Shown here: piece after piece, positions 20,601 through 23,600 of the stretch | Position numbering within the stretch: the first letter of the stretch is position 1 | Layout of the letters: every line of letters starts with the position of its first letter | NCBI GenBank assembly: GCA_036172245.1 | Contig: JAYWIR010000044.1 | Span: 372,001 to 436,000, forward strand | DNA: 64,000 nt | Source: Raillietiella orientalis | Lineage: Eukaryota | Direction of reading: 5' to 3' | Translations under genes and position numbers: made by a program | Notes under the pieces: model-generated | Told to the model about the DNA's origin: nothing | What the model saw: the letters and a program-made list of their open reading frames with translations, nothing else | The model's database searches: none

Positions 20601-23600
20601 AAAGGAACAAACTGTTATTCGACTGTTGAACTTCGCAGAAATCGCCTCAGCCGCTTTCATCTTTGGCAGTCAGCCATTTTCCTTTCTTCCGTTCGTGCGT
20701 GCGAAGTCCTCAGCACACCTGTCCATGCATCGGTCAGAGTCCTGTCTCGCAAACCTGGATAACCCATCCGGGAATCGATTCCCTCGTTCGCTAGGCAGAT
20801 GGAAAAGTCACGTATTCCGATGAGCCATGCTGCCCGCCATGATCAATCCAGCCTTCCATCTCAGACCCACGTGCGTCTGAGATGCAGTCTCTCGGATGCG
20901 CCCAAATCCTTTTACATCGCTTTTTTTTTTTTAAAAAAAAAGGCCAGTAGCGACCCCCACGAGGAGATCGTTACTATTGGCCTAGGACGAAATCCTTGGG
21001 TTCTTCTTTTTCTTCTGACTTCGCTGTTTTTCTTTCAGCTTTTTTTTTAGAGTTTTCTTTTTTTTGGTTCGCTAAGTGTGCCTCAGAACCGGTCGCGTTC
21101 CTCGTGAGTGGCTCGTTTTAAACATTAAACAAACACACTGTTTTGTTTCCACGCCCTTCCGCCCGCGGCAACCCGCAGGGGGCGTGTGATTCTTCAGGAT
21201 AGGGGGCACCCCGGAAGGGGTCCGCCCTATGAACCCAGGAAGGGCTCGGAGTCCGTTCCTCTCACGCTTGGAGAGGGATCCCCCCCTTCAAGGGGGATCG
21301 CACCTCCTACCCTGGCTGTCTCCGAAGGGAATCTCCTTCCTCATTCTCTCCGGAGGAACCCCCCTGAAGGGGGTGGTCCTCTCCATTTCATCTCCTAAAG
21401 GGAACCCGGAAAGGATCCCTTTGTGGAATTTCTTCTCCGGAGGGAATACCCGCAAGGGAACCGCTCCTGTTCACTCCTCTGAAGAGAACCCCGAAGGGAC
21501 GCTTCCGAAACTCAGAAGGGGCCCTGCAGCTTCCCGCAGGGAATCGCTCTCGCTTGTTTCCTTCTGCACACTCTGTGAAGAGGAGACGACTCGGAGGGAC
21601 CCCCCAACAGGGAGGTCCGCTCCTTTGAACAACTGGAGAGGTGCCCGTGAGGGCCCCTGCTCCATCTTGAAACCGGGAGGTCCCCACGGTGAGGGGTCCT
21701 CTCTCCGTTGTACGACCGGAGGGGGATTCCCCACTCCTTGATTCCTGGAAGGACCCGAAGCTCGACTCCCATCCATCGGGGGCCTCCGGCTTAATCCACC
21801 GCCGGTGCCACGGCCGAATGTTTCGGCCAACCAGCGCCATTGCAGGAGAAACTCGGAACCCGATGACACAGTGGCGTCAGAGTTTCTGCCGAAGTATTCG
21901 AACCCGCGTCGCATGGTGCCACACGCGGAAGTCTTAACCACAAGGCCTCCGACGCGGGGTTTTTTTTTTTTTCTTAATAGCTTTTTTTTTGATGTACTTG
22001 CCATGACCAAGGGGAGGAAACCATACAACAGTCTTCCCCTCCCAACAGGGAGCATGACCCTGAGGGCGATGACGGAAAGCGGTTGTCGAGGCGAGAATTC
22101 AAGTCTTTTGCTTCTTTTCTCCCTTTCTGCTATTCGCTTGGCCTTTCGGAATTTTCAAGATCTGTCCTGAGGTGCGTCTCGTCGCTGCGCTCTTGCTGCT
22201 ATCTGGTTTCCGCCATCGGAACTTTTGCCCGCAAGAGCTGACGTGGGTCTTCATCCTTTCCCGTGCTCGGATGGTCACATCGCAGGAGGCTCGCCCACTG
22301 CCCTGGCAACGACCGATGCGTTCTCTTCCCGGCGTTCCGAGGGAGTTCTGAATTCCTGGGAGTGATGCAGGGAAGGCGTGCCTGCCTTTTCCACAGTCTT
22401 CGCCGGGTGGACCACGCCTCCATCCTCGGATTTCAAATTTCTTTAGTCCGAGGCATTGCACAGGGGTTCCTCAACGCATTTCTGCCCTGATTGTTTGGCA
22501 TCCGTGTGGTCCCGCCCTCACGAGTCTGGCCTGGGTGTCATACGGAAGTCAGCCGTTGAGGTACGAACCCGCTACCTCAGGTTCGACGGCGCGTCTCCAA
22601 AGTCACAGGCCCATGCCCTAAGGGACGAGCGCTGTCAGAAAGAGAAAGGGCCTGGAGTATGCCAGGTCGAAAAGAACAGGATGGAACTTCTGAGGGGACG
22701 GGAACAGGAAAGCCGCTGCTGGGCAGCATCCGGAGTTGCCCAGCGTCGTCACCTGGGGCGTTTTCTGATCAACGGCGGGACGCCTCGATTCGCGCACTGG
22801 TGTTCCGAGTGGCGCTCGTGGGTTCATTTACGCAGCGCCACTGGCCCTCCTACCCGCGCGTACACCACCTGGGAAAACGCCTGGGTGATCTGCGCGGGAG
22901 CAGCGAAGTGCGTCGCACCCGCAACAGGTGCGCCGCAACCAGCCGATGGTTTGCTGAGGAACGCGGAGAGCTCCTTGCAGATTCCGGATGGCAGCAAGTC
23001 GCCGGCTGCCAATCGGCCTCCCCAGGCGACAGTTCCAAAGTCGGAAGCGCATCCCGTGATCCCGGGCAAAAGAGATGCACGAGGCTTCCGCATGACCCTA
23101 TGAGTAGTCGCCCGGCATCCACGTGCAGGCGAGAAGCAAGGAAGGCAAGTGCCGCAGGCGTCCTTCCAATCCCCGCTGATACCTCAGGAGCAGCCTTGGG
23201 AGCATCTTGCTGGGGAAGCGACCACTAGAAAAGCGTGGAAGCAGATGAAAATTGCGGAGAGCCAGGCCGAGCAAACGTGCCGGTGCTATGTTCTAGTGGA
23301 ACCTCCGCTTCTCCACCACGGGGCGCGAAGGACTCGTGGAACAGCGGTTCCACCACCCACACGGACTGAGAAGTGTTCGTGGAAACATCCTCTCTGACGT
23401 CCGTGGGAGGATGCAGGGGGAGACGAGGGGGAAAAGCAAACGGAGATGAGGGAATGCAGTTCGTTCCTCCGCTCGCATACTCCATCGCCGTGTTTTTTCT
23501 GCGCGAAAGAACGGAGCACTCGGATAGATGTGCACTGAATACCTCGGCTGGCTAACCGGTCGCAACTGTCAGCTCCCATGTCAAGCCTGAGCCTGGGTGT

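Follow-up and report, generated by a model that had tools for sequence, protein, structure and literature searches.

The elements closest to the repeat family reported here are SINEs. The published description of SINEBase, as far as we draw on it, covers 175 SINE families that measure 75-662 nt without the tail, with a mean of 253 nt. The passages of further papers used here describe mammalian T+ SINEs (B2, Dip and Ves), which combine a polyadenylation signal with a Pol III terminator and an A-tail (PMC8466645), quasidimeric SINEs, which were enlarged via internal duplication (PMC3531059), and SINEs whose middle body or tail comes from the partner LINE (PMC5786205; PMC3531059). Set against known SINEs by their published description, the family that we studied in a 64-kb stretch of DNA (the window) is in our judgement a new, unusually long SINE-type family. 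It shares with SINEs the interspersed copies and subfamilies, the marks of retroposition and the lack of coding capacity; its reference copy c21 measures 893 nt without the tail and lies outside the range of 75-662 nt.

We searched the window with nhmmer, using c21 as the query, and found the family at 12 places on both strands. These comprised all 12 places on the plus and minus strands that had been listed in the first-pass annotation of this DNA. With plain blastn just four of the 12 copies were clearly visible. The family makes up about one tenth of the window. The copies are given below with strand and, in brackets, the nhmmer match where it differs from the copy:

20921..21958, minus strand: c21, the reference and most complete copy in the window (nhmmer 21041-21975), ~1,038 nt if the T-run and A-run at its end are counted in
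53830..54749, minus strand: c53 (nhmmer 53879-54749), 82% identity to c21, missing ~20 nt of the head and with them the B box
15160..15903, minus strand: c15 (nhmmer 15194-15900), bounded by a target-site duplication of 11 nt, one of them mismatched
3827..4243, plus strand: c38 (nhmmer 3827-4186), 5'-truncated, its first base corresponding to about reference position 465
57670..58513, plus strand: c57 (nhmmer 57670-58390), full-length copy of the old subfamily with terminal hairpin, TTTT and A-rich run
26458..26810, minus strand: c26m (nhmmer 26486-26801), 5'-truncated, head to head with c26p
26815..27369, plus strand: c26p (nhmmer 26927-27332), without a head
31400..32110, minus strand: c31 (nhmmer 31457-32101), old, bounded by a target-site duplication of 10 nt, one of them mismatched
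41529..41900, minus strand: c41, old and partial
25256..25520, minus strand: c25 (nhmmer 25256-25489), old, 5' part only, exact B box at 25464-25474
19072..19237, minus strand: c19, very old, with weak similarity extending to ~18800
42890..43060, minus strand: c42 (nhmmer 42890-43051), old, 5' part only, exact B box at 42983-42993

The copies fall into two identity groups, a 'young' one of 72-82% and an old one of 56-70%. As to the proposed division into young and old subfamilies, the window holds no young pair; even the closest two copies (c21 and c53) are only 82% identical. In a second DNA data set (X1) 117 contigs were at least 80% like the element (three at 99% or above, 13 at 95-99%, 53 at 90-95% and 48 below 90%). 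A search of sequencing runs for the words of the element listed one DNA run with a small share and no RNA run. A 26-nt degenerate pattern of the family matched five copies in the window, where none was expected, and had no matches in metagenome, genome and viral contig collections. The family should be masked during annotation.

The sense strand of c21 is the minus strand. Read from 5' to 3', the element consists of a head with B box and T-arm, a body formed by an array of hairpins, a 3' stem-loop and an A-rich tail. Two copies only (c21 and c57) extend further 3', first with a terminal hairpin, then with a T-run and finally with an A-run. In c21 we located the following features:

21884..21958, minus strand: head, with an A-box-like stretch and the B-box-like GGTTCGAATAC (21894-21904), folding as a hairpin and not as a cloverleaf
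21148..21743, minus strand: body, a GC-rich hairpin array with six strict GGAG..CTCC modules and looser ones
21706, 21663, 21623, 21467, 21384 and 21307, minus strand: starts of the strict modules
21066..21090, minus strand: 3' stem-loop GGTTC..GAACC, directly before the A-run and conserved in five copies that retain the 3' region
20984..21065, minus strand: A-rich tail, in which the stretch GCTGRAAG..CAGCGAA..CCCAARGGATTTC is conserved
20942..20983, minus strand: terminal hairpin of 42 nt, common to c21 and c57 only (local alignment z=16)
20933..20941, minus strand: T9 run, the first sense run of at least four Ts after 1,017 nt and a putative Pol III terminator
20921..20932, minus strand: A12 run 3' of the T9, to be read as a poly(A) tail or else as half of a target-site duplication made up of As

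The element had been placed at 21053..21958 with a length of ~900 nt. The repeat is indeed long, but its 3' end reaches ~20921, which brings it to ~1,040 nt. In c21 the first base and the GAACC before the A-run enclose 893 nt, and the old copies measure ~640-700 nt up to the GAACC point. The younger lineage exceeds the old one by ~200-250 nt owing to segments that are present only in c21 and c53 (and c15 and c38). Among the eight copies that have 3' regions the terminal hairpin and T-run are seen in only two, so that the true 3' end of the family is uncertain and lies either at GGATTTCCAT or beyond the terminal hairpin, the T-run and the A-run.

Several copies bear marks of retroposition. The target-site duplication of c15 is an 11-mer with one mismatch (15904-15914 and 15149-15159; chance 0.5% by the same search), and that of c31 is a 10-mer with one mismatch (32111-32120 and 31390-31399) which adjoins the 5' end. 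We looked for target-site duplications in c53 and c57 and found none. For c21 a duplication is indistinguishable from the A-tail, an A13 at ~21960-21972 matching the A12 run on the other side of the copy. Four copies (c38, c26m, c26p and c41) are 5'-truncated and have the 3' region in common. There was no reverse-transcriptase ORF among the 127 + 10 that we scanned of the 180 ORFs of at least 110 aa in the window. The 10 ORFs overlapping copies had no Pfam match, and we rejected a protein-coding element on this ground. The earlier reading of the locus as an interspersed, non-coding, SINE-type retroposon family of unusual length is thus borne out by the 12 copies, the target-site duplications, the truncations and the absence of coding capacity. 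Stringent LINE reverse transcriptases recognise a conserved 3' stem-loop beside the tail, and the GGTTC..GAACC stem-loop probably serves the partner reverse transcriptase as its recognition site.

The family had also been described as tRNA-headed. A B box (GGTTCGANNCC) is exact in two heads and differs by one mismatch in four more; it lies at the same head position in six of seven heads and is lacking in c53. The exact B box has only two matches in the 64-kb window, both of them in family heads. The T-arm GGGTTCGAATCCC is retained in old heads. ARAGORN reported no tRNAs by default and, with relaxed thresholds, called one family head among 16 weak calls. The Rfam tRNA model matched neither anywhere in the window nor in searches of 161-171 nt at E<=10, and the sole Rfam-type likeness of the head was to the T-arm part of tmRNA (4.7-6.4 bits). 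Since neither ARAGORN nor the Rfam tRNA model recognises the head, we regard its derivation from a tRNA as supported only in part, namely by the B box and by the T-arm of the old copies. The element does not qualify as a tRNA gene or pseudogene, as the tRNA models detect no cloverleaf.

The sense strand of c21 contains no TTTT over 1,017 nt and then a T9 run after a hairpin of -23 kcal/mol; c53 has no TTTT in 950 nt of its sense strand. The antisense strand of c21 has eight runs of four or more Ts. The background of the window is 4.44 such runs per kb per strand, and 2.3% of random 1,017-nt stretches (GC-matched: 5.2%) are free of them. The order of hairpin, T-run and A-run is common to c21 (T9) and the old copy c57 (T4). 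If a Pol III transcript ends in a T-run and is then A-tailed, this succession of T-run and A-run is to be expected. Judged by this arrangement, the T9 run is probably a Pol III terminator and the element as a whole is predicted to be transcribed by Pol III.

In the body, the motif GGAG-N-CCC-loop-GGG-N-CTCC occurs six times in c21, whereas 1000 dinucleotide shuffles averaged 0.036 occurrences and never had more than one, and all 12 occurrences of the module per strand of the window fall within family copies. The repeated stem-loop module noticed in the first-pass annotation is therefore real. Its quoted hairpin strings are present in the sequence, except that the string at ~21277 has seven and not six Cs. 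Its observation of cUUCGg loops on the sense strand also holds: we counted four sense and no antisense occurrences of CTTCGG in c21, and 15 sense against one antisense over nine copies, where orthologous sites are non-independent. The units of the body are similar to each other (z 1.0 to 6.2, with z of at least 2.5 in 11 of 15 pairs), and the body appears to be built from diverged units of ~75-85 nt. TRF found no tandem array, and therefore the units are too diverged to rank as a minisatellite. Most likely the body arose via repeated internal duplication of a ~40-85-nt unit with a GGAG..CCC-loop-GGG..CTCC hairpin. The hairpins would then be an inheritance from the duplicated unit, and selection to keep them may have acted in master copies. 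No Rfam family matched the element (best score 18.6 bits versus a gathering score of 86). A 28S fragment adjoins copy c53, from ~53124, and for this reason an origin of the body from 28S rRNA was considered. We rejected it, as the LSU model matches the 28S fragment only and aligns no SINE body, leaving c53 as an unaligned insert.

We consider it probable that the copies are LINE-dependent, non-autonomous, SINE-type retroposons that are transcribed by Pol III and whose body grew by duplication of a hairpin unit; both the partner LINE and the duplication origin of the body are what we infer. Pol III would start at the internal promoter formed by the A-box-like stretch and the B box in the degenerate tRNA-like head, would read through the ~1-kb body free of T4 runs and would stop at the T-run just past the strong terminal hairpin. 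The RNA would bear the A-rich 3' region together with the conserved stem-loop GGTTC..GAACC, and that of complete copies would have an A-run added after the T-run. The reverse transcriptase of a partner LINE (none was seen in the window) would copy the RNA into nicked target DNA, which would leave target-site duplications and frequent 5' truncations.

The first-pass annotation favoured a long Pol III RNA whose hairpins are selected as a multivalent scaffold for protein binding or RT recruitment, or alternatively descent from a structured host ncRNA. We regard this as unlikely. Compared to shuffles, c21 folds far better both locally (z=-7.9 sense, -4.9 antisense) and globally (z=-5.86 and -4.39), and the strand specificity of the cUUCGg loops points in the same direction. 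The local-fold z of the other copies, however, ranged from -2.6 to +0.8, inside or close to the span of 15 control segments (-2.5 to +1.2), and no Rfam family matched the element. The number of pairs changed on both sides was 36, compared to 22-27 in slid controls and 25.1 in shuffles (one of 500 reached 36), whereas further pair types and the covariation score were unexceptional, being reached by 26 and 10 of 500 shuffles, respectively. Copy c53 kept 210 pairs versus 200.5 under a permutation null (p=0.001), but this excess may stem from conditioning on the G-U pairs of c21 itself. Across the eight non-reference copies pair retention gave z=1.5 and double changes numbered 51 versus 45.2 (p=0.18), against a null that preserves the substitution spectrum of each copy. 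Substitution rates were equal in stems, hairpin loops and linkers (for c53 0.136, 0.165 and 0.132, respectively). The statement that pairing is kept between copies thus finds no statistical support. The two strands had similar numbers of G-U pairs (25 and 27), and G-U asymmetry is uninformative as a test for the transcribed strand. RNAalifold, which had been suggested as a check, predicted just 29 pairs for nine aligned copies at -9.15 kcal/mol with a covariation term of +0.41; this near-absence of a consensus structure is probably due to gaps and decay. All in all the tests do not favour selection for a multivalent hairpin scaffold, although they were run on dead copies and hence have low power. 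Quite unlikely in our view is the more specific idea of a ~1-kb Pol III RNA free of T4 runs and with its own terminator of hairpin and T-run, in which 8-12 paralogous hairpins with UUCG-type caps would be selected as repeated docking sites for a single RNA-binding protein and their number would have been raised by selection in the younger lineage. The docked RNA-binding protein could be, for instance, that of the partner LINE or a host factor. At ~1 kb such a transcript would rank among the longest known Pol III RNAs.

It is very unlikely that no Pol III SINE is involved and that the copies are deletion derivatives of a LINE, reduced to its UTRs, or Pol II retropseudogenes with an incidental B-box-like motif. 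This would fit with an element longer than known SINEs, with a head on which tRNA models fail and with an A-rich tail and 5' truncations as in any LINE-mobilised RNA, but less well with a B box that keeps its place in six of seven heads and has no exact match in 64 kb outside the heads, with a sense strand that is TTTT-free for ~1 kb up to the hairpin and T-run, and with ORF remnants that have no Pfam match. A DNA-level palindromic repeat (MITE, foldback or degenerate dispersed minisatellite) with hairpins from G/C-run slippage and no RNA stage is barely credible, for although there are hairpins on both strands and the loop and run lengths of c21 and c53 differ at C/G homopolymers, the copies are all of one fixed polarity, from a defined head to an A-rich tail, are truncated at the 5' end, bear target-site duplications of 10-11 nt, yield no array with TRF and show a strong CTTCGG strand bias.

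If Pol III transcribes the whole element, as our preferred reading of a SINE-type retroposon supposes, the size range of SINEs would go up by about half and the element would provide a natural case of a long Pol III unit in which T-runs are avoided across 1 kb. Its enlargement by hairpin units could also offer a handle on the length limits of SINEs and on the competition of structured RNAs for the LINE machinery. Otherwise this is an ordinary repeat family, a common kind of genomic parasite. In the literature the four short motifs of the element appeared in no relevant paper and only as an unrelated primer, and searches for long or novel SINEs led to general SINE papers only.

In comparison with the SINEs described for SINEBase, the family has the same layout of head, body and tail, an internal B box with a remnant of the T-arm, interspersed copies, subfamilies, target-site duplications, 5' truncation and no coding capacity. 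It differs from those descriptions in its length (~890-1,040 nt versus 75-662 nt), in a head too degenerate for tRNA models and in a body where paralogous GC-rich hairpins stand in an array. The T-run (T9 in c21, T4 in c57) that directly precedes an A-run recalls the T+ SINEs as described. Unlike these, neither c21 nor c57 has an AATAAA in the last ~150 nt, which places the family outside the T+ SINEs; a strong hairpin stands before the T-run, most copies are without such an end, and the host is probably an arthropod. With SINEs that contain LINE-derived parts the family shares a conserved 3' stem-loop beside the tail, and its body could be LINE-derived too. The quasidimeric SINEs resemble it in their growth by internal duplication, which is suggested here by the extra segments of the younger lineage and the likeness of the units. 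In place of one round of duplication, however, the family would have gone through many rounds with a small hairpin unit, and its units have diverged beyond what TRF detects.

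A profile search with the most complete copy, c21, as query recovered all 12 places, on both strands, at which the first-pass annotation had seen the element. Plain blastn shows four copies of the family clearly in the window. The copies referred to individually are:

3827..4243, plus strand: c38, younger group
15160..15903, minus strand: c15, younger group
20921..21958, minus strand: c21, younger group, reference copy
31400..32110, minus strand: c31, old copy
53830..54749, minus strand: c53, younger group
57670..58513, plus strand: c57, old copy

The hairpins quoted in that annotation are present in the window sequence. 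In its strict form, GGAG-N(1-9)-C(3+)-loop-G(3+)-N(1-9)-CTCC, the hairpin module occurs six times in c21, compared to a mean of 0.036 and a maximum of 1 in 1000 dinucleotide shuffles, and 100% of its occurrences in the window lie inside family copies. Local folding yielded ∼17 hairpins at −10 kcal/mol or better along c21, and the whole copy folds at −427.5 kcal/mol in sense (z = −5.86) and −394.8 kcal/mol in antisense (z = −4.39). The repeated-hairpin family is real and far beyond chance. We based the family analysis on the window and one coded DNA run. In the latter, 117 contigs are at least 80% alike to the element (3 at 99% or more, 13 at 95–99%, 53 at 90–95% and 48 below 90%) and the family is therefore multi-copy there too. 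A degenerate pattern that finds five copies in the window had no match in three public collections.

The family is a real, long, hairpin-rich retroposon of the SINE type. Four copies are truncated at the 5' end and have the 3' region in common. At c15 the flanks carry matching 11-mers that differ at one position (15904-15914 and 15149-15159); at random places the same search succeeds 0.5% of the time. At c31 the matching flanks are 10-mers, again with a single mismatch, and directly adjoin the first base of the copy. Both flanks of c21 are A-runs, so a duplication is indistinguishable from the tail; at c53 and c57 we looked for a target-site duplication and found none. ORFs overlapping copies gave no Pfam match. 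A large inverted repeat, 26458-27369, consists of two old copies placed head to head (26458-26810 on the minus strand and 26815-27369 on the plus strand).

The anatomy described in the first pass was right. Copy c21 reads in sense on the minus strand, from its head at 21958 down to an A-rich end at lower coordinates, and the element continues 3' beyond the start first assigned to it. The copies share the start point (G)CCCGCGT(C/T)GG, and the head has an A-box-like stretch followed by a B box ∼47 nt downstream. The exact B box GGTTCGANNCC occurs only twice in the 64 kb, both times in family heads (25464 and 42983), and with one mismatch in four further heads. In the 3' region of c21 we find:

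21066-21090, minus strand: conserved stem-loop GGTTC..GAACC

Downstream follow an A-run and then an A-rich stretch, also conserved, that closes with ..CCCAARGGATTTC(CAT). In c21 and the old copy at 57670 a 42-nt hairpin comes next, and after it a run of T (T9 or T4) and one of A (z = 16). The remaining six copies that have a 3' region do not carry this piece. A long C-run with a T-run immediately after it lies downstream of c38 at ∼4340-4375 (plus strand).

That the element is headed by a tRNA was borne out in part: the B box is there and old copies keep a complete T-arm, but tRNA models do not recognise the head. ARAGORN found no tRNA in the window; at 85% thresholds it called one family head among 16 weak calls. 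The Rfam tRNA model had no match anywhere in the window. Searches restricted to 161-171 nt at the two best heads likewise gave none; there, the T-arm alone matches tmRNA (4.7-6.4 bits). A B-box/T-arm-like GGTTTGAATCC within ..CACGGTTTGAATCCCCGGCC.. at 18481-18491 (minus strand), outside the aligned part of all family copies, could head a different tRNA-like repeat.

TRF detected no tandem array in the body. Its 75-85-nt blocks, in each of which a purine-rich linker joins a long hairpin to a short one, are mutually similar (local alignment z from 1.0 to 6.2 for 15 pairs, against mononucleotide shuffles). Up to the A-run, old copies measure ∼640-700 nt and c21 893 nt, because several segments are exclusive to c21 and c53 (and in part c15 and c38). 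In our reading the body grew as a hairpin unit was duplicated internally.

When the local structure of c21 was laid on the aligned copies, 75.3% of cells paired compared to 39-50% with slid partners, a figure inflated because the structure derives from one of the aligned sequences. Pairs changed on both sides numbered 36, compared to 22-27 with slid partners and 25.1 ± 3.6 after shuffling, and one of 500 shuffles reached 36. Further pair types and the covariation score were not extreme (reached by 26 and 10 of 500 shuffles, respectively). Against a null in which each copy's letters were permuted among stem columns with one reference base in common, pairings totalled 796 versus 783.3 ± 8.7 (z = 1.5) and double changes 51 versus 45.2 (p = 0.18). 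By copy, c53 alone stands out (p = 0.001), an excess that conditioning on the G-U pairs of c21 can explain. Divergence is alike in stems, in the loops of hairpins and at the remaining unpaired positions, both in c53 (0.136, 0.165 and 0.132) and in c57 (0.398, 0.397 and 0.414); the sole nominal regional difference is between stems and linkers of c15 (p = 0.02). The local-fold z was −7.9 for c21, between −2.6 and −2.0 in c57, c53 and c38, and between −1.6 and +0.8 in the remaining eight copies; 15 control segments gave −2.5 to +1.2. Pairing, divergence and folding tests on the window copies gave no positive evidence for structure maintenance; the results agree with a source RNA that is structured and with neutral decay of its copies after insertion. 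They do not refute the role proposed in the first pass, a multivalent hairpin scaffold kept by selection, which stands as a hypothesis. CTTCGG occurs four times in sense and never in antisense in c21, and 15 times versus once in nine copies, at sites partly orthologous or paralogous and not independent. This strand bias counts in favour of an RNA-level feature.

The window is eukaryotic and largely non-coding, with a G+C content of ∼52%. We scanned 127 of its 180 ORFs of at least 110 aa with Pfam, and just two matched:

1041-1487, plus strand: LRR ORF, weak Pfam match
17543-18325, minus strand: Ig_3/I-set domain exon, Pfam E = 2.5e-9

The host is probably an arthropod or other protostome, because the Atlas clusters closest to the Ig ORF are chiefly arthropod and some mollusc; we treat this placement as a pointer rather than a result. 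Rfam LSU_rRNA_eukarya matches 53104-53536 (plus strand) at 119.5 bits over model positions 24-664. This 5' piece of 28S rRNA is an orphan, outside any rDNA array, and faces the 3' end of c53 tail to tail. It probably extends to about 53800, and the GC-rich stretch 3' of it resembles the D2 expansion. A second, strongly decayed 28S-like fragment is on the other strand from the first (29099-29213, minus strand; model positions 825-941); at 34.5 bits it falls short of the gathering score, which is 50. Three stretches hold long inverted repeats, perfect or nearly so: 42513-42566 (25 bp arms, 2-nt centre), 49509-49590 and 554-636. On either strand they match miRNA models unrelated to one another, at scores under the gathering thresholds, and they could represent MITE-like or foldback sequences.

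The sense strand of c21 runs for 1,017 nt without TTTT and then has T9 directly after the terminal hairpin (−23.4 kcal/mol); that of c53 runs for 950 nt without TTTT. T4+ runs have a density of 4.44 per kb per strand in the window, 2.3% of random 1,017-nt stretches of it are free of them (5.2% if GC-matched), and the antisense strand of c21 has eight. The pattern is indirect evidence that the element would be transcribed by Pol III. A T-run with an A-run directly behind it is reminiscent of the mammalian T+ SINEs (PMC8466645); unlike those, c21 and c57 have no AATAAA in their last ∼150 nt.

Literature searches weakly suggest that the family is so far undescribed. SINEBase gives 175 families of 75-662 nt (mean 253) and a layout of head, body and tail; it includes quasidimeric forms as well as bodies that come from a LINE or whose source is unknown. 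By its definition of a SINE, the family conforms on every tested point except its length and a tRNA-recognisable head.
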